Part shown: one piece after another, positions 38,931-59,268 of the stretch | How positions within the stretch are numbered: the first letter of the stretch is position 1 | How the letters are laid out: each line of letters begins with the position of its first letter | NCBI GenBank assembly: GCA_016928815.1 | Contig: JAFGJZ010000015.1 | Coordinates: 1 to 60,519, forward strand | DNA length: 60,519 nucleotides | Direction of reading: 5' to 3' | DNA from: Spirochaetota bacterium | Lineage (GTDB): Bacteria > Spirochaetota > UBA4802 > JAFGJZ01 | Translations under genes and position numbers: made by a program | Notes under the pieces: generated by a model | Database searches by the model: none | Seen by the model: the letters and a program-made list of their open reading frames with translations, nothing else | Told to the model about the DNA's origin: nothing

Positions 38931-40727
38931 CTAACTGCAGATAATTTTATTTTTACCTGAATTTTTCGCCTTATACAGATTCTGATCTGCTCTTGTAAAA
39001 ACATACTCAATCGGTTCATTTTTAGCTCTGATTGAAACCCCGCCGCTTACTGTAACCGGGCCCTTTATCATGTAATTTGAAAAATCAAGTTCCGATATTT
39101 TTTTCCTTATACGGTTCCCGATTCTACCGAACTCCTCTTCCTGTCCGCTTAAGAATATAACTGCAAGTTCTTCTCCGCCGAGCCGCACCTGAATATCATC
39201 TCCCCTTGTTTCATCCAGAAGAACCTTTGCAATATTTTTAAGAACAATGTCTCCGGCACTGTGTCCATATGTGTCATTAACACTTTTAAAATTATCAATA
39301 TCAAAATATATCATACCAAGTTTATAATGATCATCCCTGTCCTGCATTCTGCAGAAACGGTCCACCATTTCCTGCATGTAGAATCTTGAATAGAGTCCGG
39401 TAAGAGAATCTTTTATTGACTGCTGGTAAAAATGATTTTTCTGCTTATCAAGATGCATGTTGATCAATTCTCTTTCCAGAGCAGCGCTTAAGGCGGGCAT
39501 CAGCTGCTGCAGAATCGCTTCTGTCTCATCATCGATAAAAATCTCTTTTTCAAAAGAAAAATAAATTAATCCGATTAAAGATTCATCATCCATGTTGAAA
39601 AGAGGCACAAGAAGTACCCTGCTTTTTTTTAAATCATTTCCGAAAGTGTCTTCTCCGTAGCTGCTCAGCTTCACCGGATATTTTCCATATTCAGTGATCC
39701 AGTCCTCACGTTTTCTTCCATATAAATGATGGCAGACTTTACAGGTTTTTTTATAACTGTCCGCTTTATGTTTATCCTTGCCCAGAACAATTATTTCTCC
39801 ATCTTCATCCTGTGATACAAAAAAAATATCTTCAATATTAAGAAGCTCACCTGTCTGTTCAATCAGACTGCTGACAATCTGATTAAAATTTGAACTTAAT
39901 ATTATCGTTTTGGTGACATCTGAAAGCAGCCGGTTAAGCCGTAACAATTTAACAATTTTTGTACTTGTCTGTGCCAGAGTATAAATACCGCATTCTGTCT
40001 CTTTCAACCTGTTGATTACAAATGGGATCAATTGCCGTGGTATAATAGAACCATGCTGAGGAACTATCGCATCAATTTCAACTCCCTCCAGCTTATTAAG
40101 AAAATTAAGTAAAATTTCTCGGCTTGGCATATAATGCTCATGAAAAAACCTGATACCTTCATAACAGTTTTCATTCTGAGCAACAAGCTGAAAATCCGGA
40201 GAAATTGCACCGAATATATCACTTGAAAATAGAATTTTGCGGGATTCAAAATATGTAGTAAATGCACCGGGAAAATGGAGATACGGGCTGAAAATAAACT
40301 TAAGTACAATATCATTCCCGGCATCAAGAACCCAGCCCATTTTTTCAATACATTGAAGCGGCAGTTTCAGTCCGAGATGTTTCAAAAGCACAATCGCGCG
40401 CCAGTGAGTCAAAATTACTGCATCATTTCTGGAAATTAATGAATCTATACTGCCGAGAGCACCGGTAATATCCGGATCCTGATGATGACAGATAAAGTAC
40501 TTTATGTGACCGAACGGGATTATGGTTTCTATTTTTTTTAATGTTTTTTTAAAAGTAAGAACACTTCCCGGATCAATTAGAATACTGTTTTCACCATTTG
40601 CAATAAGATACGGATGACATTGAAAATCATCATTTTCCAGCTTAGATCCGACCCAGTAAACATCCGGTTTTATTTCTATTGCATTTTTATAATCCTCTTC
40701 TGACAGATTATTCAGACTGTATACCAT
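38931..40727 (-). CDS. diguanylate cyclase with N-terminal flavodiiron-like metallo-beta-lactamase-fold domain and central GAF-like domain
   Basis: The N-terminus aligns to the FprA/FDP di-iron domain (CHHQDPDITGAL, SPYLHFPGAF, FSSDIFGA, VPQHGSI). The C-terminal GGDEF domain has DSLTGLYSR, YFDIDNFKSVNDTYGH and RLGGEELAV. Confidence 0.75.
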   Translation of the reverse strand: MVYSLNNLSEEDYKNAIEIKPDVYWVGSKLENDDFQCHPYLIANGENSILIDPGSVLTFKKTLKKIETIIPFGHIKYFICHHQDPDITGALGSIDSLISRNDAVILTHWRAIVLLKHLGLKLPLQCIEKMGWVLDAGNDIVLKFIFSPYLHFPGAFTTYFESRKILFSSDIFGAISPDFQLVAQNENCYEGIRFFHEHYMPSREILLNFLNKLEGVEIDAIVPQHGSIIPRQLIPFVINRLKETECGIYTLAQTSTKIVKLLRLNRLLSDVTKTIILSSNFNQIVSSLIEQTGELLNIEDIFFVSQDEDGEIIVLGKDKHKADSYKKTCKVCHHLYGRKREDWITEYGKYPVKLSSYGEDTFGNDLKKSRVLLVPLFNMDDESLIGLIYFSFEKEIFIDDETEAILQQLMPALSAALERELINMHLDKQKNHFYQQSIKDSLTGLYSRFYMQEMVDRFCRMQDRDDHYKLGMIYFDIDNFKSVNDTYGHSAGDIVLKNIAKVLLDETRGDDIQVRLGGEELAVIFLSGQEEEFGRIGNRIRKKISELDFSNYMIKGPVTVSGGVSIRAKNEPIEYVFTRADQNLYKAKNSGKNKIICS

Positions 40728-46227: not shown

Positions 46228-46959
46228 TTATTGAAAATCAGCCTTCAAATATTCTCTGCTGACCATTTCTGTTGCCTGACAGAAAGCATCAGTGAGCAGC
46301 ATTCCATCTGCAAGACCGCAGGCTATTGCTGTTGAAAGCATGCAGCCTGTTCCATGGGAATACTGAAAATTCCGTCTGGGCTTGAAAAAATAATGAATTG
46401 ATCCGTCGACTGCCGCTTCTTTGATCTCCGTTCCTTCAAAGTGTCCGCCTTTTAATATAAAAGAAGTAAGCTGCGGTTTGTTTTTTAAAACATATTCCGC
46501 GGCTTCTTCTATTGAAGAAAACTGTTTTTCGAACAGAATCTCCAGTTCTGTTTTATTCGGAGTAATCACATCAGCATGCGGAAGAACTTCTCTCCGGAAA
46601 AGAGAGATCATTTCCGGAGAATAAAAACTGTTTCCGGCGGTGGGACGGAAAACAGGATCGATTATTACCGGAACAGGACAGTCCCTTATGAAATCAATGA
46701 CATCATATAACTGCCTCACCGAAAACAGAGCTCCGATTTTAACCGCTGCGGGATTAAACATTTCAGATACCTTCAGCTGCTGCCGAAAAACATCATCAGG
46801 TACCGGGAATACCGAAACAGCTTTCTGAAATGACTGGACGGTAATTCCGGTAACCGAACAAACTGCGTGAAATCCAAAACCATGCACTGTACGCACATCC
46901 TGCTGCATTCCCGCACCTCCGCTTGAATCGGAGCCTGAAATTACATGAATAAATTTCAT
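46228..46959 (-). CDS. thiD: hydroxymethylpyrimidine / phosphomethylpyrimidine kinase
   Basis: [16 protein letters not shown] and [12 protein letters not shown] motifs. 4-nt overlap with thiC. Confidence 0.85.
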
Positions 46960-48221
46960 AACTCATGACGCAGGGCGCAGAGATCACCGCACATGCTGCA
47001 GTATTCCTTTTCCGCACTCTCAGACGCTTCCCTTCTGTTTTTCGCAGTCTCAGGATCAATCGCATGCAGAAACATGCCGTCCCAGTCGAGGTTTTTTCTG
47101 CATTCGGACATTCTGATGTTCCTTTCAGCGGCTCCATGAACTTTCTTTGCAATATCTCCGGCATGCGCCGCAATAACGGAAGCTGTCACTCCCTGCCTCA
47201 CATCATTTTCATCCGGCAGACAGAGATGTTCAGCCGGAGTTACATAGCACAGAAAATCTGCACCGAAAGAAGCTGCAACCGCTCCGCCGATTGCCGCAGT
47301 GATATGATCATAGCCCGGAGCTACATCACAGACCAGCGGACCGAGTACATAGAACGGGGCATTATCGCACATTTTTTTCTGAATTTCCATGTTGAACTGT
47401 ATTTCATTTATCGGGACATGTCCCGGTCCTTCCACCATTACCTGGACATCTTTTCCCCTGCATCGTTTTACAAGAGAGCCAAGAGTCTTTAATTCCTTAA
47501 GCTGCAGCCCGTCACCTGCATCAGCAATACCTCCCGGACGCATTCCGTCACCGAGACTCAATGTAACATCATACTCATACGCAATATCAAGCAGCCTGTC
47601 AAAATATTCATAATAGGGGTTCTCATTTCCGGTCTCCGTCATCCAGAGTTTTGTCAGAGAACCTCCCCTGCTGACAATTCCCGCAACACGTTTCAGTGAA
47701 CCGTAACTGCGGAATAAATCCTGATTTACTCCGCAGTGAACGGTAATGAAATCAACTCCATCGCGAACCTGTCTTACCACAGCTGAGAAGAAATCATCCG
47801 GCGTGATATCTTTCAGTTTTCCGCCGCTGCGTATCTTATCTGCAAAAACTTCATACAACGGAACTGTTCCGACCATCACAGGACTTTTTTCAATAACCGT
47901 TTTTCTTATCATAGAGAGATCGCCTCCGGTGGAAAGATCCATTATGCTGTGGGCTCCGCATTTGACAGCCGCTTCAAGCTTAGAAAGTTCTTTCAGATGA
48001 TTACAGGACTCCGCGGATGTACCGATATTCGCGTTTACTTTCGTCCTCAGCCCTTTTCCGATTCCTTCACAGGAAAAAGTTCTCCTGTTATTTTTTGGAA
48101 TTACTATTGTTCCTTTAATCAGGCCCTCCGCAATAAATTCAGGTGAAACATTTTCTTTTTCAGCAACAGTTTTCATTTCCCCTGTAATTATACCTTTTCG
48201 GGCTTTTACTATCTGTGTCAT
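46956..48221 (-). CDS. thiC: phosphomethylpyrimidine synthase (radical SAM)
   Basis: Highly conserved ThiC blocks ([35 protein letters not shown]) and the C-terminal CSMCGDLC cluster motif. Confidence 0.95.
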
Positions 48222-48838
48222 GTTTTCCTCAGTTTATCCGCAAAAAAGCGGATTTCTTCATCGTATTTTTCACTTTTACATACAGCACTTATCATTGCTA
48301 TATTTTTCGCACCCGCCTCTATTACACTGTCAATGTTATGTCTGTTAATTCCACCAATCGCCGTAACCGGAACTTCCGAAAATTCCAGAACCTGTTTCAG
48401 CAGATCAGTACCGGTAACCGGATCGGGCTTCCTTTTTGCAAATGTCGGAAACACGGGACCGAACCCGATGTAATCGGGGTTTTCAGAAAGAGCTTCCTTC
48501 GCCTGTTCGAAATTATGAGTCGAAATTCCAATAAGATGACTGCCGGTTTCGGAAGTTAAGCTTCTCACTTCGGCAGCTTTCAGATCATCCTGCCCTGCAT
48601 GAGTTCCGTCAGCTCCGCACAGAAGAGCAATGTCAGGCCGGTCATTAATTATCAGTTTCGTCTGCGAACCGGCAGTTATACTTTTCAGTCTTTTCGCCAG
48701 GGCGAGAAGATCCCTGTCGCAGAGATTTTTTTCTCGAAGCTGAATCATCTCAACTCCGTGCCTGACGCATGACTCGGCGATTTTTTCGTGCATCACAACC
48801 GGACTGGTTATTATTACGTATAAACCGAAATCTTTCAT
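48218..48838 (-). CDS. thiE: thiamine-phosphate synthase
   Basis: [22 protein letters not shown]-like block (GTHAGQDD), IGISTH, AIGGI. Confidence 0.9.
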
Positions 48839-49608
48839 GCGAGAGATTCCCGGATTATCGAAGCAGCTTTTTTTCCGGACAGAAGCATTCCGCCGAAAAT
48901 CGGTCCCATGCGGTAACCGCCACTGACTCCGTTTGCAGACATTCCGGAAACAAAAATGCCGGGATAGATCTCTTTGGTATTTTCAACAGTTTTGCGCTCG
49001 CCCTCTTCTACTGCAAGAGATGACTCGCCGACAACATCTCCGGTGGAGGTATGCAATTTTATTCCGTTTTTCTGAGCAAGAATTTTTGAAATTTCGCACG
49101 GATGACCGGTCGCATCAAGTACAGCCTTTGCTCTCACAACGAGAGGATCAACATGCATTCCCGTCCGCACGACCGGGTTCCAGTTGATAACAACTCCGTT
49201 TACTTTCCTGGTGGTGCTGTTAAGAACGACATCTTCAACACGCATGCTGTTGAAGATTACAGCGCCTGCTTTCCGTGCGCAGTAAATCAGCGCTGAAGTC
49301 GCTTCGACAGAATCAATCACATAATTATTTTCATCATATTCGGCTGCCGTAATGCCGAACTCGCGGATTATTTCATCCGCTTCTTTCTGAACCATGATCT
49401 GATTAAACAGCATGGCTCCGCCCCACATTCCGCCGCCCGGAGCAAGCTTAGACTCGTAGACAGCAGTCTTAATTCCAGACTTCGCGAGATAGTACGCGGC
49501 AACCAAACCCGAAGGCCCTCCTCCGACAATAGCAGCGTCAATGTCAAGGTATTCATCCAGCTTCGAAAGAAATGAGCGGATAATTCCGCGCGATACAGTT
49601 ACTTCCAT
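48835..49608 (-). CDS. thi4: Thi4-type thiazole synthase (archaeal/eukaryotic-type)
   Basis: FAD/NAD motif DAAIVGGGPSGL, ESKLAPGGGMWGG, DATGHP, and MGPIFGGMLLSG, as in Thi4/THI1 proteins. First gene behind the TPP riboswitch. Confidence 0.85.
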   Translation of the reverse strand: MEVTVSRGIIRSFLSKLDEYLDIDAAIVGGGPSGLVAAYYLAKSGIKTAVYESKLAPGGGMWGGAMLFNQIMVQKEADEIIREFGITAAEYDENNYVIDSVEATSALIYCARKAGAVIFNSMRVEDVVLNSTTRKVNGVVINWNPVVRTGMHVDPLVVRAKAVLDATGHPCEISKILAQKNGIKLHTSTGDVVGESSLAVEEGERKTVENTKEIYPGIFVSGMSANGVSGGYRMGPIFGGMLLSGKKAASIIRESLA

Positions 49609-49614
49609 AAAAAA

Positions 49615-49742
49615 ATCCTCCTAAAATTAATCGGGAGGATAATGCATTTGTCAGAAAAGATTAAAGTTGTCCTTCCCTTCGCTGGCATTATCCAGATCAG
49701 GTTCAACGGGTATGATCTCAGCCCAAAGGGCACCCCGAAACT
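49615..49742 (-). promoter_or_regulatory. TPP (THI-box) riboswitch with SD-sequestering expression platform, leader of thi4-thiE-thiC-thiD
   Basis: The minus strand reads GUUUCGGGGUGCCCUUUGGGCUGAGAUCAUACCCGUUGAACCUGAUCUGGAUAAUGCCAGCGAAGGGAAGG. Downstream, AUCCUCC (49640..49634) is complementary to the SD GGAGGAU (49621..49615), which lies 6 nt before the ATG. A TTGACA -35 box is at 49777..49772. Confidence 0.9.
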
Positions 49743-49908
49743 TAAGTTTATTTTCACGGAACTGTTTTATTTGTCAAGGAATTATTGTTTTTGGAGTTGG
49801 GATGTGGAATATGCTCTTTAATTTTATTAAAAAAATATTTACCAATAAAAAGTCTGCTAACTGTTTAACTTTATCAAACAAACAGCAAGCAGACTTTATT
49901 TAAAAATT

Positions 49909-51189
49909 CTATAACTTACAGAAAACTCCAACCTGTAAGAAAACATTTACAGGTGCATCCTTTTTAAAATCATCTATATTAACTTTAGAATCAATATTGG
50001 CGTATTCAGGAACTATTCCCGAAGAATCGGTTGTCAATTGCTTTATTTTTAATTTCGACATATAATGTCCATACAAAAGATGTGAATAACCTACTGAGAA
50101 CTTAATTCCAAAGATATCATTAAAATTAATTTTAATTCCGGGATTGAACTCAGCATTAAGTACAGATACATTTTCAGTAAAGGAAATATCATATAATTGG
50201 TCATATACATGATATCCATCAACCCAATCCCGAAGGTGAAATTTGCCAATACTTATTTCATCTAATAAAAAATATGAATATGATAGAGACAAATTTAAAA
50301 AAAAGGTTGCCCTACCGATGTGCTTATTTAACGAACCTCCAAGCTTAACACCAGAACCACGGAAATTAAACTTTATGTTCTTATCATCTACATAATAAAT
50401 ATCTATTCTTTCTGAGGTTATTTCATTTTCAGCATAAGCATCCGGATGTGGAGATCTAACATCCTGACTATTGAAATAATTTACTGAAGCAATTACCCCG
50501 AAAACCCTGTTAAAATAATATCCAATGCCAAAATTAAATTCATCATACTCAACATTTTTAAAAAAAGTTTTAGTGTAAACCGGATCTCCGAATACTGTAG
50601 GCATACTTACGGTTGGTATCGGTAATTTATATATCATTCCCCGCCGGTAATCAAATGCAACCTCAAAATTACTATTTTCTACATTTTTCTTATAATCCCT
50701 ATTTGGCAGATTATATTCTTTTCCAGTCAGTTTATTTAAGAGTTTTACCGCAAGGACTTTTGACGCTTTGTCAATATCATCCATTACATAGCAGGTTTCA
50801 GAGTCAGCGACAATAACCGAACCGGTTTTAATATCTATAAATTTCGCATTTATTGAATATTTTTCTCCCAGCTTTGAAATAGAACCAAGAAGAAGGATGT
50901 CAGCAGACAGCATTTCACCGATTAGTATTGAATTATTAACATCTTCTGCAGATTTAATGCTCATATTTTTTTCTTTTAATATACGGTCAATCTGGGACCG
51001 TTCAATGATAGTCAGATCATTATATTTTTTTAATTCAGTTGTTATTACATCACTAACTGCTTTACCGAAAAATGACGGAACACCGTTTGAATTAAAATCA
51101 AGTACTGCCAGGTTATCCTTTGCTGCAAAAAGATTAAACGCTGTAAAAAAAATGATTATTAATGACAATAATTTAATTATGAATTTCAT
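49909..51189 (-). CDS. secreted protein: CsgG/LpoB-like N-terminal domain plus beta-barrel-like C-terminal region
   Basis: Signal peptide. LAVLDFNSNGVPSFFGKAVSDVITTELKKYNDLTIIERSQIDRILKEK and LLLGSISKLGEKYSINAKFIDIKTGSV fit the CsgG/LpoB/FlgO-type periplasmic fold. The C-terminal 270 aa are Y/F/G/N-rich with an alternating pattern. Confidence 0.45.
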   Translation of the reverse strand: MKFIIKLLSLIIIFFTAFNLFAAKDNLAVLDFNSNGVPSFFGKAVSDVITTELKKYNDLTIIERSQIDRILKEKNMSIKSAEDVNNSILIGEMLSADILLLGSISKLGEKYSINAKFIDIKTGSVIVADSETCYVMDDIDKASKVLAVKLLNKLTGKEYNLPNRDYKKNVENSNFEVAFDYRRGMIYKLPIPTVSMPTVFGDPVYTKTFFKNVEYDEFNFGIGYYFNRVFGVIASVNYFNSQDVRSPHPDAYAENEITSERIDIYYVDDKNIKFNFRGSGVKLGGSLNKHIGRATFFLNLSLSYSYFLLDEISIGKFHLRDWVDGYHVYDQLYDISFTENVSVLNAEFNPGIKINFNDIFGIKFSVGYSHLLYGHYMSKLKIKQLTTDSSGIVPEYANIDSKVNIDDFKKDAPVNVFLQVGVFCKL

Positions 51190-51260
51190 AAATTATACTC
51201 CTATAATGTTATTATTAAAAAGTGTATGAATTGGAATAATCGTCACAAAAATTTCTTAAT

Positions 51261-52049
51261 TTATTTTAAAATTTTTCTATTTTTAATCTCTTCAGAAATA
51301 ATCTGTAATTCCATATGTAAATCTTCCATGCGGTTAAAAGTCCTGTTGTTTACGTACTCAAGTTCTGAATTTTCAGCATTATATAATTTCACTGTTAATG
51401 AATACTTCTGATCAAGTCTGATTACTCTGCCTGTAAGAATATATTTTGACTCAGTTCTATTATCACCCAAATTTAAAATTACTGCGCCCTTTTCAGTAAA
51501 AGAGGACAATTCAGAAAACAACATGCCCTCAACATCCGGAATTTCTTCTGAATTAAAAAATTCAAACTTATTTATTTTCAATAAAACAGTATTTTCAGAT
51601 TTTTTCTGTACTTTTAAATTTTTATCGGTTTTCCCGTTTTCAATTGCTTCCGTTTCTTTTTTATCGGTTTTTGCCGGTATATCTCCGGCGCTATCATGAG
51701 TCATGGCAGATATAAATTCTTTTTTATTTTTATCCATATTTACCGAATTAAAATATACTTTATATGTAATTAGCGATGCCGGTACAGCAACCGAAATAAT
51801 TAATGAAGAAAGAAGGATAGTTTTTATCCAGGCAATTGATAGATTAATCCCGGTTTTTTTGAGCAGATAATAAACAGATATTAAAATCCCGAATGAAACC
51901 GAATAATTATCAACATCCTTTAATATAATTTTTAAATTTTTGGATTTATCAGCTGCAACAGATTTTTTAACCTCAGCCGGCAGGTCATTCTGAAACCTGT
52001 ATTTTCGCAGTAAGCTTCTAAAATTATTTTCGATTAATACTGATTTCAT
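51261..52049 (-). CDS. membrane protein in anti-sigma position (no zf-HC2 motif), extracytoplasmic CsgG/LpoB-like domain
   Basis: 4-nt overlap with the sigma gene. There are two TM helices. The C-terminal segment KYILTGRVIRLDQKYSLTVKLYNAENSEL resembles the N-domain of the next gene. Confidence 0.4.
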   Translation of the reverse strand: MKSVLIENNFRSLLRKYRFQNDLPAEVKKSVAADKSKNLKIILKDVDNYSVSFGILISVYYLLKKTGINLSIAWIKTILLSSLIISVAVPASLITYKVYFNSVNMDKNKKEFISAMTHDSAGDIPAKTDKKETEAIENGKTDKNLKVQKKSENTVLLKINKFEFFNSEEIPDVEGMLFSELSSFTEKGAVILNLGDNRTESKYILTGRVIRLDQKYSLTVKLYNAENSELEYVNNRTFNRMEDLHMELQIISEEIKNRKILK

Positions 52050-52651
52050 AATAATTCCTCAAGGCTGTTTATACCCTGTTTTTTCAAAATATCCATAACT
52101 TTTGAAACAATATTCCTGTACCGATATTCCACTTTCCTTTTCGTCAGACCGGTATGAACAGCCGTTTCTTTATAACTGTAATTAAAGAACGCGACCAGCT
52201 CAAAAACCATCTGCTCTTCTTCAGTTAACATACCTTCAAGCTGTTTAAAAGCAGATTCAATAATAATTCTTGACTCTCTCATTCCATTAACAAACGTCAG
52301 AGCAACATCATTAAAAATCTCATCAATGTCTGTTGACTCATTTTTCTTTTTCGAACGGTAATATTCAAAAACAACAAGTTTCAGAGTACCATACAGCCAC
52401 TTTTTATAATCTTCAATTTCATCCATTTTATTATACATACGGATAAAAACTTCCTGAGAAATGTCATTTGCATCTGCTTCATTACTGACTTTTGTATAGA
52501 CAGTGCTGTACACAAGGATGTAATATTTATCGTATATTTCAGTAAATTTCAATGCTTGTTTTCTATTCATTTCCCAGCCGCATATAAGTGATATAATCAG
52601 TACATTTGTAACAATAAATTTATTGTAAAGAAGAAATTTTTTCATATTCAT
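52046..52651 (-). CDS. ECF-type sigma-70 family RNA polymerase sigma factor
   Basis: Region 2 is DISQEVFIRMYNKMDEIEDYKKWLYGTLKLVVFEYYRSKKK. Region 4 is LTEEEQMVFELVAFFNYSYKETAVHTGLTKRKVEYRYRNIVSKV. The first 27 codons look like a spurious hydrophobic extension, so an alternative start is ATG 52570. Confidence 0.8.
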   Translation of the reverse strand: MNMKKFLLYNKFIVTNVLIISLICGWEMNRKQALKFTEIYDKYYILVYSTVYTKVSNEADANDISQEVFIRMYNKMDEIEDYKKWLYGTLKLVVFEYYRSKKKNESTDIDEIFNDVALTFVNGMRESRIIIESAFKQLEGMLTEEEQMVFELVAFFNYSYKETAVHTGLTKRKVEYRYRNIVSKVMDILKKQGINSLEELL

Positions 52652-52690
52652 AGCTGCTGTGTTTTAATCGAATCTGTTAAGTGTGAGTTA

Positions 52691-52805
52691 TAATCGGGAG
52701 GATAATGCATTTGTCAGAAAAGATTATAATCGTCCTTCCCTTCGCTGGCATTATCCAGATCAGGTTCAACGGGTATGATCTCAGCCCAAAGGGCACCCCG
52801 AAACT
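52691..52805 (-). promoter_or_regulatory. second TPP riboswitch aptamer copy, upstream of the ECF sigma operon
   Basis: 112/115 nt identical to 49628..49742. The only differences are at 52727, 52729 and 52731. The same TTGACA block lies at 52839..52834. Confidence 0.85.
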
Positions 52806-52933
52806 GACTTGATATTTATTTATGTGAGGTTTTTGTCAAGGAATTATTGGTTTATGATTTCTATGCATTTATTGTAATTTCTTTGTAGCTTTCTCAAATG
52901 TAGAAAAATAGCAGGGTTTAAAACAATATCCTT

Positions 52934-53158
52934 TCACTCTCCTTCTCTGAATTCCCTGATTATATTTATTATTTCATTTGTTTTTATTTTTGAATTGATG
53001 CCTTGAACATCAAATGGTGATTTCGATTCCGTTTCGATTATTGGTACTATTCTGAATTTGGAACCGTCCTTCCTGGCAATAACTACTTCTTCTTTTAATG
53101 AAGAATTGAGAATAGATGCAAAGTTCTGCCTGGCTTCAGAATAATTATATATTTTCAT
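52934..53158 (-). CDS. Phd/YefM-type antitoxin
   Basis: MKIYNYSEARQNFASILNSSLKEEVVIARKDGSKFRIVP is the typical Phd/YefM N-terminus. 4-nt overlap with the PIN gene. Confidence 0.7.
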   Translation of the reverse strand: MKIYNYSEARQNFASILNSSLKEEVVIARKDGSKFRIVPIIETESKSPFDVQGINSKIKTNEIINIIREFREGE

Positions 53159-53550
53159 TTGACCTCCTGAATTGATAAATTCATTTTTTCAGCAATTTCG
53201 ATCATTTTCTGATCAAGTGTTAAAAGACAAATTTTAAATCTTTTAGCAAGTTCCAGATAATAAGCATCATAGGCATATATGTCATATTTAAGAGCAATTT
53301 CAAGTGCGTCTTTAATATCAACTTCGACTAAACGAACTGGAATAAGTTTATAATTATAATAACATTTGTGAATTTCATCTTTTGAAAGCTTTTTCTGTTT
53401 ATTAATCGCTGAGAGAGCATTTCCGATTTCATAAGGAAGAATAACCGGAGAGATTATTTCAGCATTATGTGTTGTTTCAACAATTTTGACTTTTTCCGGC
53501 TCATTTAAAATAACAGCCATAAAAATGTTTGCATCTGCCAATAACTTCAT
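53155..53550 (-). CDS. vapC: PIN-domain toxin (VapC family)
   Basis: The four PIN acidic positions are present (LLADANIF, PYEIGNAL, AYDAYYLELA, LLTLDQKM). Start taken at ATG 53550. The track's 53565 start is a TTG. Confidence 0.8.
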   Translation of the reverse strand: MKLLADANIFMAVILNEPEKVKIVETTHNAEIISPVILPYEIGNALSAINKQKKLSKDEIHKCYYNYKLIPVRLVEVDIKDALEIALKYDIYAYDAYYLELAKRFKICLLTLDQKMIEIAEKMNLSIQEVK

Positions 53551-53761
53551 AAGTACAATGTACAACGATAAAGATTATTAGTCAATGTTTTTTAGCATAT
53601 TAATCTACAAAATTACTTCAAACTTTATATGCAGCAAAAACTCACCATGTAGTTTCTTTTGAACCTAACATCATACTTTAAATTTTGCGATCAACGATGA
53701 ATCAGCGGGAGACATTTGAACATCGGATTACTAAATAAGATGGAGACGCCTTATAATCTCA

Positions 53762-53884
53762 TTAGCGATGTAATTTTAAATAGTCTTCTACAATCTGCGA
53801 AAGACTTATCTTGCTTTTATTTGCGTGGAGCTTTGCTTTATGAATAATTGTATTATCAATTGACAAAGTTAATTTAGTCTGCAT
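53762..53884 (-). CDS. small ribbon-helix-helix-like antitoxin-type protein (DUF6364-like), orphan
   Basis: AGGAG lies 8 nt before ATG 53884. The product MQTKLTLSIDNTIIHKAKLHANKSKISLSQIVEDYLKLHR is typical of small RHH antitoxins paired with PIN toxins. Confidence 0.5.
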   Translation of the reverse strand: MQTKLTLSIDNTIIHKAKLHANKSKISLSQIVEDYLKLHR

Positions 53885-54056
53885 TTTAAATCTCCTGCGT
53901 ATAATAAAACAAATATTCTTACGTACATCAGGTTTAAATTTCCACATTTTCGTGGTTTTTAATATAACACATATTTATTTCATAAAACTATTGCAAAAAT
54001 TTCTGATAAATGCATAACTGATGATGAGCAATAAATAATCATGAGAGGATCCGGAT

Positions 54057-55572: not shown

Positions 55573-55905
55573 TTATTCGACATGAGCCAGTTCATCAATA
55601 ATTGCTTTCTCGACGAATTTATTCAAGGATACTTTCTTTTTTATTGAGGCAATCGCTATTGCCTTATGAAGTTCCGGAGAAATTCTTAAATTGAATTTTC
55701 CTGAATAAGGTTTTTCAGGATTAACTCCATCTTCTTTACACCATTTCAAATAATCATCAATTGAGTCTTCAAACGCTTTTTCAATTTCTTTTACAGATGT
55801 TCCCTGGAATGTAATTACATCTTTTGTATTTATTACATCTCCATGAAAAATCTTTGCGTCAGAATCGTAAGTTACTGTTCCAATGTATCCTTTATATTCC
55901 ATCAT
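55573..55905 (-). CDS. hicB: HicB antitoxin
   Basis: MMEYKGYIGTVTYDSDAKIFHGDVINTKDVITFQGTSVKEIEKAFEDSIDDYL...SGKFNLRISPELHKA. This combines the HicB N-domain with an RHH domain. Confidence 0.85.
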   Translation of the reverse strand: MMEYKGYIGTVTYDSDAKIFHGDVINTKDVITFQGTSVKEIEKAFEDSIDDYLKWCKEDGVNPEKPYSGKFNLRISPELHKAIAIASIKKKVSLNKFVEKAIIDELAHVE

Positions 55906-56156
55906 GGTTTTATCCCCGCGTTTTCTAAAAATCGTTTCATTGACACTACTGCACCTTTATCTGTTTCTTTTTTAGGATGCGGCCTGTGAAAAACAGCTCT
56001 TACATCATTAAGCCTGATACGGATTCTTGAACCATCGCCTTCACTTATTTCTGCTCCTATTGACAGCAGAAATGCTTCAATGTCTTTCCATTGAATAGAT
56101 GACATTGCCGGCTTTTTGAAGATATCTTTCAATGTTTTTCTATTTCTGGCATTCAT
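55902..56156 (-). CDS. hicA: HicA toxin
   Basis: An 84-aa protein with the GSRIRIRL...VFHRPHP block. It lies upstream of and overlaps hicB by 4 nt, which is the canonical hicAB order. Confidence 0.85.
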   Translation of the reverse strand: MNARNRKTLKDIFKKPAMSSIQWKDIEAFLLSIGAEISEGDGSRIRIRLNDVRAVFHRPHPKKETDKGAVVSMKRFLENAGIKP

Positions 56157-56914: not shown

Positions 56915-58108
56915 TTATCTGTCATTCCTCATACTTAGAGAGCCTTTTTTTGGAGAATCATCATCGCTGAGAGCTCCGTTCAGATCATTGACTTCTTTCA
57001 GAGACAGACCTCCTTTCTCATCACCCAGAAGCCGGAAACGGATTTTTCTGACAGTTTCCCGAATTTCATTTTTCAGGGCGGAGTCATTAATGATATGAAT
57101 AATCTCCTGAAAATATTTCAAGGTGCCTGTACTGCTGCAGGCAATGAGTGTTTCCGCAATATCGTCCTGCAGATGGTCTTTACTGCGGATTGAATCTATT
57201 AAAATTTCAAAAAGAAATTCAATCTGATCATCAGATTTAAGAATTCCGAAATATTCAAGTATCATTTTCTTCAACTGATAATCATCTGTTTTGGAATAGA
57301 CTTCCATGATGACATTCATGTCGGATTCGGATTTTGATTTAATAAAACTGCTTATTATCTCCTTCTGATAATCGCAGGGTTCCATGTCTTCAAAAAAACC
57401 TGTATCAGACAAAGTCTTTTCGCCGTTTTGAATAATCTGCGCAGCTAAAAGTTCTGTTGAATGGTCTGCTGTTCTGAACATTTTATTCAGAATCTTTTTA
57501 TGATGTCTGTTCAGAGACTCGGATCCATTATAGAAATTAAATATATTTTTTATTTCATTTCTGGTTAAAAATTGCTGCAGTTTTGATATGATCAGCAGCC
57601 TCCGTTTTACATACAGCCGCATGAAATACACAAAATCAACCAGTTCATACAGGTTTTTCTCCATGTCCTTTGTAAATTCAACAGGTGCATATAAAACGGC
57701 CTGAACACCGTCAAGTCCATGATCTGCATGGTAACTGCCATACACCAGCTCCGAAAAACGGGTTTTGATATTCTGATCAAAAATAAAATGAACAATATAA
57801 GCAGGAGGCAGGCTGATATCCTTTAATTCATTAAGTCCGAAGGATGCGGAAATTACAAGTTTTTTCCTGGCTCGTTTTATATCAACATTAAGTCTGAAGA
57901 ATAAATCTTTTTGTTTCAATTTTTTAAAAAAGCTTTCAATCTTTTCAGCTTCAAATTTTTTATCTTTTTCGGATCCGTAAATGACGCTGATTAATGATTT
58001 ATCTTTCACAGGCAATGAAGATTTATTTTTTGAAAAAATCCATTTGATGGAACCTGCAATCACGAAGGCAATCACACCGCCGCCGACACATGTGACAAAT
58101 AAATCCAT
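56915..58108 (-). CDS. membrane-anchored hypothetical protein (helical-repeat-like cytoplasmic region)
   Basis: N-terminal TM helix (LFVTCVGGGVIAFVIAGSI). The rest is predicted helical and the C-terminus reads GGLSLKEV..GALS. No family recognised. Confidence 0.45.
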   Translation of the reverse strand: MDLFVTCVGGGVIAFVIAGSIKWIFSKNKSSLPVKDKSLISVIYGSEKDKKFEAEKIESFFKKLKQKDLFFRLNVDIKRARKKLVISASFGLNELKDISLPPAYIVHFIFDQNIKTRFSELVYGSYHADHGLDGVQAVLYAPVEFTKDMEKNLYELVDFVYFMRLYVKRRLLIISKLQQFLTRNEIKNIFNFYNGSESLNRHHKKILNKMFRTADHSTELLAAQIIQNGEKTLSDTGFFEDMEPCDYQKEIISSFIKSKSESDMNVIMEVYSKTDDYQLKKMILEYFGILKSDDQIEFLFEILIDSIRSKDHLQDDIAETLIACSSTGTLKYFQEIIHIINDSALKNEIRETVRKIRFRLLGDEKGGLSLKEVNDLNGALSDDDSPKKGSLSMRNDR

Positions 58109-58657: not shown

Positions 58658-58993
58658 TTAGTTTTTCCTTAACAATCTGTTTAATAAAACATCTTCGATG
58701 TTTCTTCTGCCTTCAATTACTGTCATTACATATACATTATCATTTTCAATTCTATATATCAATTTCCAGACGGAATAAATAATCTCCCTGTAATTTGTAA
58801 TATTATGTAACTTTAATTCCGGAACAATACGGCCTCTCTCCGGAAAACTACATAACTTATCTGTTTTTTCTTTTATTTCTGTAAGAATATTTAAGGCGCT
58901 TTCAACACTATCATTTGAAATATATTCAATAATTTCTTCCAGATCATTTGCGGCCGACTTTGTCCATGCAACGTCAAATTTATTGATTTTCAT
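58658..58993 (-). CDS. RelE/ParE-family toxin
   Basis: …AANDLEEIIEYI…FPERGRIVPEL…YREIIYSVWKLIYRIENDNVYVMTVIEGRR fits ParE/RelE. 4-nt overlap with the upstream antitoxin gene. Confidence 0.85.
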   Translation of the reverse strand: MKINKFDVAWTKSAANDLEEIIEYISNDSVESALNILTEIKEKTDKLCSFPERGRIVPELKLHNITNYREIIYSVWKLIYRIENDNVYVMTVIEGRRNIEDVLLNRLLRKN

Positions 58994-59268
58994 TTTTTAT
59001 TCTTCAGTTTTTCTTTTAATACTGAAAATACAATTTTATGATCAGTAATCTCACCTTTTTTTATTTCATCTTCACTTTGAGATAAAATTTTCATCAAGCC
59101 CAGGGCGTTTTTCATCTGTTCATAACTTTCGGAATCAACCACAACAGCCCGTGCTTCTCCATTTTGAGTTACATAAGTCGGACGACGAGTATCATTTACC
59201 TGATTTAACACATCAGCGGTATGGGATTTCACATAAGAAACAGGTCTGATATCTTCTTTAATTTTCAT
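58990..59268 (-). CDS. Phd/YefM-family antitoxin
   Basis: PVSYVKSHTADVLNQVNDTRRPTYVTQNGEARAVVVDSESYEQM. Confidence 0.85.
   Translation of the reverse strand: MKIKEDIRPVSYVKSHTADVLNQVNDTRRPTYVTQNGEARAVVVDSESYEQMKNALGLMKILSQSEDEIKKGEITDHKIVFSVLKEKLKNKK

Follow-up and report, generated by a model that had tools for sequence, protein, structure and literature searches.

Can a TPP riboswitch be wired to a sigma factor? The TPP-regulated genes that have been catalogued function in thiamin biosynthesis, salvage, and transport (PMC3766115; PMC11477304). In the DNA studied here, a metagenomic contig of 60,519 nucleotides (nt) that was analyzed as a whole and is referred to as the window, one TPP aptamer (copy 1) precedes thi4, and a second one (copy 2) precedes the gene of an ECF sigma factor. 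It was originally predicted that copy 2 couples a whole regulon, or an envelope module, to the TPP pool. The prediction also stated that no TPP riboswitch upstream of a sigma factor was known, and our literature search for such a case indeed found none.

The location of copy 2 upstream of the sigma operon is real and is more than chance. Copy 2 is likely to be a duplicate of the thi4 leader that is specific to this lineage, truncated, and devoid of an output module, and the downstream sigma operon probably has promoters of its own. The arrangement is a cautionary and evolutionary example and not a demonstrated new regulatory link.

Two TPP aptamers and their shared promoter box

The whole window was scanned with Rfam cmscan at the gathering threshold, which is 54.3 bits for RF00059. 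Two matches were obtained in total. Both were to RF00059, on the minus strand, and full-length (model positions 1 to 105; Table 1). Both leaders passed the threshold, confirming the second aptamer that had been claimed at 52.7 kb. The aptamer core of copy 2 is identical to that of copy 1 (0 substitutions), and its score is comparably high. In the cmscan alignment of copy 2, the CUGAGA, ACCUGAUCUGGAUAAUGCCAGCG, and GGGA core is present and the helices P1 to P5 are able to form. The TPP fold could be enforced on copy 2 at −18.1 kcal/mol, with a P1 of 8 bp. Copy 2 probably binds TPP if it is transcribed.

The aptamers are parts of a 115-nt direct repeat (49628-49742 and 52691-52805; starts 3063 nt apart), and the predicted identity of 112/115 (97%) was reproduced. 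In addition to the aptamer, the repeat contains the anti-aptamer/anti-SD segment (UCUUUUCU...GCAUUAUCCUCCCGAUUA), with the anti-SD ATCCTCC of copy 2 at 52703-52697. Within the repeat, copy 2 differs from copy 1 by three substitutions. They are confined to 5 nt on the 3' side of P1, facing the diverged 5' flank, and make this helix longer (AGUC/GAUU). This extension could reflect maintenance of the aptamer.

The same substitutions create a perfect TATAAT (52728-52723), 17 nt after ATGCCA (52723-52751, minus strand). This combination resembles a sigma-70 promoter and lies inside the 3' half of the copy-2 aptamer.

The two aptamers are preceded by one and the same 18-mer (plus strand, TTTGTCAAGGAATTATTG; minus strand, CAATAATTCCTTGACAAA), which includes the shared TTGACA-containing 17-mer noticed originally; in shuffled sequences, 0 such matches were expected. 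About 27 nt separate the 18-mer from the repeat, and they are unrelated in copy 1 and copy 2. The identity between the two leaders is therefore mosaic, with 18 identical nt, the unrelated stretch, and then 115 nt at 97%. A consensus promoter scan called the copy-1 promoter, and none was called from the copy-2 box. The shared −35 box suggests that copy 2 is transcribable.

Table 1. Features of the window that bear on the two TPP aptamers and the sigma operon
Feature	Position	Strand	Details
thi4-thiE-thiC-thiD operon	46228-49608	−	Pfam Thi4, TMP-TENI, ThiC_Rad_SAM, Phos_pyr_kin
TPP riboswitch copy 1, complete platform	49628-49747	−	Anti-SD ATCCTCC 49640-49634, predicted to pair with SD GGAGGAT 49621-49615; thi4 ATG 49608
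TPP aptamer copy 1	49656-49747	−	RF00059, 75.2 bits
18-mer promoter box copy 1	49770-49787	−	−35 TTGACA 49777-49772, 16-nt spacer, GAAAAT
Intrinsic terminator of the sigma operon	49843-49896	−	Long hairpin, then UUUUUAUU; MFE −23.4 kcal/mol, z = −4.67, 0/200 shuffles as good
Secreted CsgG-like protein, 426 aa, beta-barrel-like C-terminus	49909-51189	−	Pfam CsgG 7e-10 (N-terminus), weak OMP_b-brl match
Second predicted ECF-type promoter, upstream of the CsgG-like gene	51215-51252	−	TTGTGAC 51248-51242, 17-nt spacer, CACTTT 51224-51219; top PWM match, 19.7
Membrane protein, 262 aa, putative anti-sigma factor	51261-52049	−	Start overlaps the sigma stop by 4 nt
ECF sigma-70 family factor, 174 aa	52046-52570	−	Pfam Sigma70_r2 and Sigma70_r4_2
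Predicted ECF-type sigma promoter, family-typical, probably autoregulatory	52581-52618	−	TTGTTAC 52614-52608, 17-nt spacer, CACTTA 52590-52585
Direct repeat copy 2 (aptamer and anti-aptamer/anti-SD segment)	52691-52805	−	97% identity to 49628-49742
TPP aptamer copy 2, upstream of the sigma operon	52719-52810	−	RF00059, 74.6 bits, full model, E = 7e-13
18-mer promoter box copy 2	52832-52849	−	−35 TTGACA 52839-52834; −10 AAATAT weakly recognizable
Phd antitoxin	53158-52934	−	Between the PIN toxin and the copy-2 box
PIN toxin	53565-53155	−	Upstream of copy 2
Toxin-antitoxin segments	52934-53565, 53762-53947, 55573-56156, 58658-59268		

The output element in the thi4 and sigma leaders

For comparison, we used the leaders of three related Spirochaetota thi4 loci (L092, L094, and L096), the Thi4 proteins of which are 74 to 77% identical to that of the window. 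Each locus has a single TPP riboswitch, located directly upstream of thi4-thiE-thiC-thiD. The three leaders and copy 1 have kept TTGAC (−35), the aptamer, GCATTATCCTCC, AGGAGGA (SD), and ATG. Since this layout including the SD is conserved in the three relatives, the SD is an integral output element of the thi4 switch. In the unconstrained fold, the platform pairs with the aptamer (GGAUAAUGC/GCAUUAUCC, GGGG/CCUCCC, and GGGAAGGA/UCUUUUCU) and the SD is free. When the aptamer of copy 1 was enforced, AUCCUCC paired with GGAGGAU and the SD was sequestered. According to these folds, copy 1 is a thiM-like translational OFF switch, complete with the expression platform that belongs to an RF00059 riboswitch.

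The last letters of the repeat in copy 2 are ...CCTCCCGATTA, and the AGGAGG SD of copy 1 is located 11 nt beyond this point. Past this end, copy 1 continues with ATTTTAGGAGGATTTTTTTATG into thi4, whereas copy 2 continues with approximately 120 nt of unrelated sequence. No terminator-like site was found between the copy-2 aptamer and the sigma gene. Neither the expression platform nor the conserved association with a thiamin gene, two hallmarks of RF00059, was found at copy 2: the SD partner and the terminator are missing, the sigma start hardly changes in accessibility (see below), and the gene downstream encodes an ECF sigma factor.

The leading alternative is that the aptamer was captured without its original SD and was recruited to modulate the module of ECF sigma factor, anti-sigma factor, and CsgG-like protein by read-through and long-range pairing. 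Transcription from the upstream sigma-70-type promoter would produce a long, aptamer-bearing leader that reads through into the sigma gene. TPP would free the platform strand, which would either pair with the sigma start (CAUU.UCC/GGA.AAUG and UUUUCUG/UAGAAAA) or alter Rho access or RNA stability, and abundant TPP would lower the basal expression of the sigma and anti-sigma factors. The intact, high-scoring aptamer of copy 2, its retained −35 box, and the substitutions that extend P1 favor this alternative. Given the pristine aptamer and the lack of a terminator ahead of the sigma gene, read-through control of sigma keeps a small probability.

Folding gave this alternative further support at first sight. 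With the aptamer enforced on copy 2, the released strand paired in the MFE structure with GGAAAUG and UAGAAAA at the sigma start (7 + 7 bp), and the energy of the platform-to-start duplex (−12.8 kcal/mol) was close to that of thi4 (−13.0 kcal/mol). In the ensemble, however, the accessibility of the sigma start barely moved, from 0.38 to 0.34, upon enforcing the aptamer. Moreover, the copy-2 duplex energy was matched or beaten by 22% of the other start regions of the window and by 11% of shuffles, and was thus no better than background. We rejected duplex energy as a test of platform-start pairing, since it is non-discriminating: GGAGG is common among genes, and even the genuine thi4 pairing is at the 22nd percentile. 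The measure weighs heavily in neither direction. Other constraints also account for both partners of the sigma pairing: the thi4 leaders conserve UCUUUUCU as their anti-aptamer strand, and AUGAAUAGAAAA encodes the conserved MNRK N-terminus of the sigma factor. Together with the missing native SD and with the family-typical promoter and the TPP-free homologous loci described below, these results make recruitment of the aptamer by the sigma module unlikely.

The sigma operon, its predicted promoters, and its homologous loci

On the minus strand, the order is PIN, Phd, box and TPP copy 2, sigma gene, 262-aa protein gene, 426-aa protein gene, terminator, box and TPP copy 1, and thi4-thiE-thiC-thiD. 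The original description of the trio downstream of copy 2 as an ECF sigma factor, a translationally coupled membrane protein, and a beta-barrel-like protein agrees with the Pfam matches, the 4-nt overlap, and the CsgG and weak OMP matches listed in Table 1. The sigma factor contains regions 2 and 4 only and has the size of an ECF sigma factor (about 170 to 200 aa expected). Its best homolog in the protein database is 60% identical. Of the two start codons originally considered, 52651 and 52570, the latter holds: the N-termini of 15 homologs (170 to 176 aa) aligned from the methionine at 52570. Start codon 52651 was rejected on the basis of this alignment and because the predicted promoter falls inside the putative extension. 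Neither the sigma gene nor its homologs have an SD.

A two-block motif, T-rich-TGTCA/TGTTA ... (A)CGCTTA/CACTTA, recurs 9 to 25 nt before the ATG in the upstream regions of 65 homologous sigma genes. A promoter PWM was built from 18 homolog sites, none of them from the window, and both strands of the window were scanned (121k positions). The site before the sigma gene ranked 2nd of the 121k positions and 5th when the most similar training site was left out; 0.43 matches are expected per simulated window at its score. Its CACTTA ends 14 nt before the sigma ATG, and the whole PWM site ends 11 nt before it. The best match in the window is located upstream of the CsgG-like gene (Table 1). The TTGTTnn-N17-CACTnn geometry is shared by both window sites, by L018, and by the two closest sigma homologs (L098 and L099, 59 to 60% identical), the latter two being outside the training set. 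Further untrained PWM matches are located 3.1 to 3.5 kb downstream of sigma at five loci (L011, L016, L020, L022, and L005), as expected of a regulon promoter. The third-best match in the window (57956-57994, plus strand, score 16.4) is antisense inside an unannotated 397-aa ORF (56915-58108).

TTGTnnn-N17-C[AG]CTnn, often after a T-run, is probably the recognition motif of this ECF sigma family itself. As sequence evidence for promoters of its own, which are typical of an ECF module, the sigma operon has this conserved motif at 52614-52585 and 51248-51219. Since the aptamer and the sigma ATG have the family-conserved motif between them, the predicted start of the family-typical sigma transcript is near 52578, past the end of the aptamer and its platform at 52691. 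The very short leader predicted in this way is consistent with the missing SD in the sigma gene and its homologs. In silico, this argues against the aptamer-bearing sigma transcript on which the original prediction depended.

No Pfam family, including anti-sigma domains, matched the 262-aa protein. Homologs that share its N-terminal approximately 90 aa come directly after sigma in about 35 loci and are in turn followed by a CsgG-like protein in about 17. An exact-protein look-up of the 426-aa CsgG-like protein found nothing, and among 5.8 billion proteins it has no homolog above 33% identity. Since all its homologs are distant (≤33%), they are unusable for tracing the trio. The N-terminal approximately 150 aa of this protein alone are recognizably common to the trio partners elsewhere. 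We also considered the CsgG-like/beta-barrel protein as a thiamine-related outer-membrane transporter and rejected this idea, since neither TPP elements nor thi genes are linked to any of the homologous trios.

Members of the sigma family occur only in uncultured Spirochaetota/Leptospirales-like MAGs, often as several paralogs per genome. The module of sigma factor, membrane protein, and CsgG-like protein is likewise multi-copy per genome (L012 to L075), for example in the JAZDKB01 contigs L018, L021, L034, L046, and L067. Within 6 to 10 kb of about 75 distinct sigma-family loci, all from uncultured Spirochaetota, no TPP element was found. Specifically, 0 TPP elements were detected by Rfam on 11 of the sigma-family loci, by a core-motif regex over 994 kb, by a covariance model over 964 kb, and by the same model at the two closest homologs with filters off. 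The covariance model was built from the two window copies; as a positive control, it recovered the thi4 riboswitches of the relatives with 67 to 82 bits, and these were confirmed by Rfam. The model also produced weak matches in L084, L017, and L028 and at two places in the window (39317-39391 and 51902-52002, E>1), all of which we dismissed as noise. When metagenome contigs were scanned with a DNA pattern describing the aptamer plus platform, 0 matches were obtained, and a close relative at the DNA level was thus not found.

The original prediction had proposed that trios without a TPP element in other genomes would speak for a recent non-functional duplication. Such TPP-free loci are what we found (0 of about 75 sigma loci, many of them with the same trio). 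Taken together, the missing SD, the intervening promoter motif, and these homologous loci argue against the proposed coupling of a regulon or envelope module to the TPP pool.

Copy 2 could instead be a stand-alone RNA, either a short non-coding RNA acting in trans (as TPP buffer or sRNA) or an insulator against read-through from the toxin-antitoxin genes. A −35 box and an intact aptamer without a cis output would suit such a role, and other riboswitch classes have given rise to RNAs that act in trans, such as the SreA SAM riboswitch of Listeria. However, there is no terminator to define a short transcript, and one extra aptamer per cell would provide negligible TPP buffering. We regard a stand-alone RNA as very unlikely.

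Proposed origin of copy 2 and comparison with known systems

The region between 49.8 and 54.0 kb (trio, PIN/Phd, and DUF6364) has a GC content of 27 to 33%, compared to 42 to 49% in the thi operon and approximately 45% in the next gene, which encodes an M28 peptidase. Toxin-antitoxin modules (PIN/Phd, DUF6364, HicA/HicB, and ParE/Phd) are dense upstream of the thi operon. The thi4-thiE-thiC-thiD operon also occurs in the relatives, where carA directly abuts the thi leader; in the window, the toxin-antitoxin-rich stretch is found there instead. Only copy 1 of the two copies is a complete orthologous leader. An imperfect 22-nt inverted repeat (52862-52883 / 53995-54016, 77% complementary) brackets the PIN/Phd/DUF6364 block and may be due to chance in AT-rich DNA. 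The thiazole synthase of the window is of the Thi4 type and is named sulfide-dependent ADP-thiazole synthase in source annotations. The thi operon of the related Spirochaetota (L092, L094, and L096) is followed by a small NrdD-like ORF and leuS, and that of the window by an Nramp transporter.

These data fit best with copy 2 being an incomplete paralog of the thi4 leader found in the same organism. It has retained the −35 box, the intact TPP aptamer, and the anti-aptamer/anti-SD strand and lacks the SD/start-codon element. A lineage-specific rearrangement would have put the AT-rich island with the trio beside the thi operon, leaving the trio flanked by direct repeats. Such a repeat-trio-repeat structure is as Campbell-type integration or unequal recombination would leave it. 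The sigma operon would be expressed mainly from its own ECF-type promoters, in the riboswitch-ATG interval and before the CsgG-like gene. With its own promoter downstream of the riboswitch, the main sigma transcript would therefore lack the aptamer, and we infer that copy 2 has no recognizable route from TPP binding to control of sigma.

Some observations count against a truncated duplicate. These are (i) the copy-2 aptamer without decay, (ii) the shared −35 box and the lack of a terminator against read-through into sigma, (iii) the mosaic identity and the P1-lengthening substitutions, and (iv) the pairing of the platform with the sigma start at a thi4-like energy. The mosaic identity indicates that a single simple recent duplication is insufficient; gene conversion, selection, or a small replacement event may have been involved.

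Least probable of all is an assembly artefact, in which the aptamer-sigma junction would result from misjoining at the repeat or from the collapse of a strain mixture at the approximately 75-nt identical core: the window is a single metagenomic contig seen once, the identical core between the copy-specific flanks is shorter than a typical read, and GC shifts sharply around the island, but three internal positions and both flanks distinguish the copies, which were thus resolved rather than collapsed, a path running twice through the repeat would need reads for all four junctions, and the operon structure around both copies is coherent, with a terminator followed by a promoter.

If copy 2 is a truncated duplicate, the window contains an ordinary TPP riboswitch and a truncated local copy of it, and the case would be of value chiefly as a caution and for the study of evolution. 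Assigning a gene to a riboswitch regulon takes more than a high-scoring aptamer in front of it; the expression platform and intervening promoters need checking. The locus would also cleanly illustrate how an aptamer can be copied in nature while its output module is left behind, which provides raw material from which new riboswitch targets could evolve. Newly defined here are an undescribed promoter motif and a conserved module of ECF sigma factor, membrane protein, and CsgG-like protein. If the coupling were true after all, an envelope regulon would follow the thiamine cofactor pool, and a riboswitch would have been caught acquiring a new target.

The aptamers of the window resemble the E. 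coli thiM-type switch in their architecture (P1 to P5, no P3a) and near-identical core. Copy 1 and the thi4 leaders of the relatives also share with it the use of an anti-SD, AUCCUCC, for which the aptamer and the SD GGAGGAU are alternative pairing partners. In contrast, copy 2 has no SD or start codon and is located approximately 150 nt upstream of a non-thiamine gene that lacks an SD. Similarly, copy 1 controls thi4-thiE-thiC-thiD as in the relatives and conforms to canonical TPP regulons, whereas the ECF sigma factor after copy 2 belongs to a category outside the functions catalogued in PMC3766115 and PMC11477304.

The precedent for a sigma factor in a riboswitch-controlled operon is the c-di-GMP-I riboswitch upstream of the Clostridioides difficile flgB operon, which contains sigD (PMC11477304). 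There, the regulon follows the ligand, which is a second messenger, and the riboswitch, which has been validated by experiment, possesses a functional terminator platform. Copy 2 differs from this system by its cofactor ligand, the absent output element, and the predicted own promoter of the sigma gene. Finally, the trio resembles known modules of ECF sigma and anti-sigma factors in having sigma regions 2 and 4, an overlapping membrane-protein gene, and a two-block promoter motif before both the sigma gene and a downstream target. It differs from them in that the membrane partner in the window lacks a recognized anti-sigma Pfam domain and in that the family is found in uncultured Spirochaetota only, where it is paired with CsgG-like lipoproteins.
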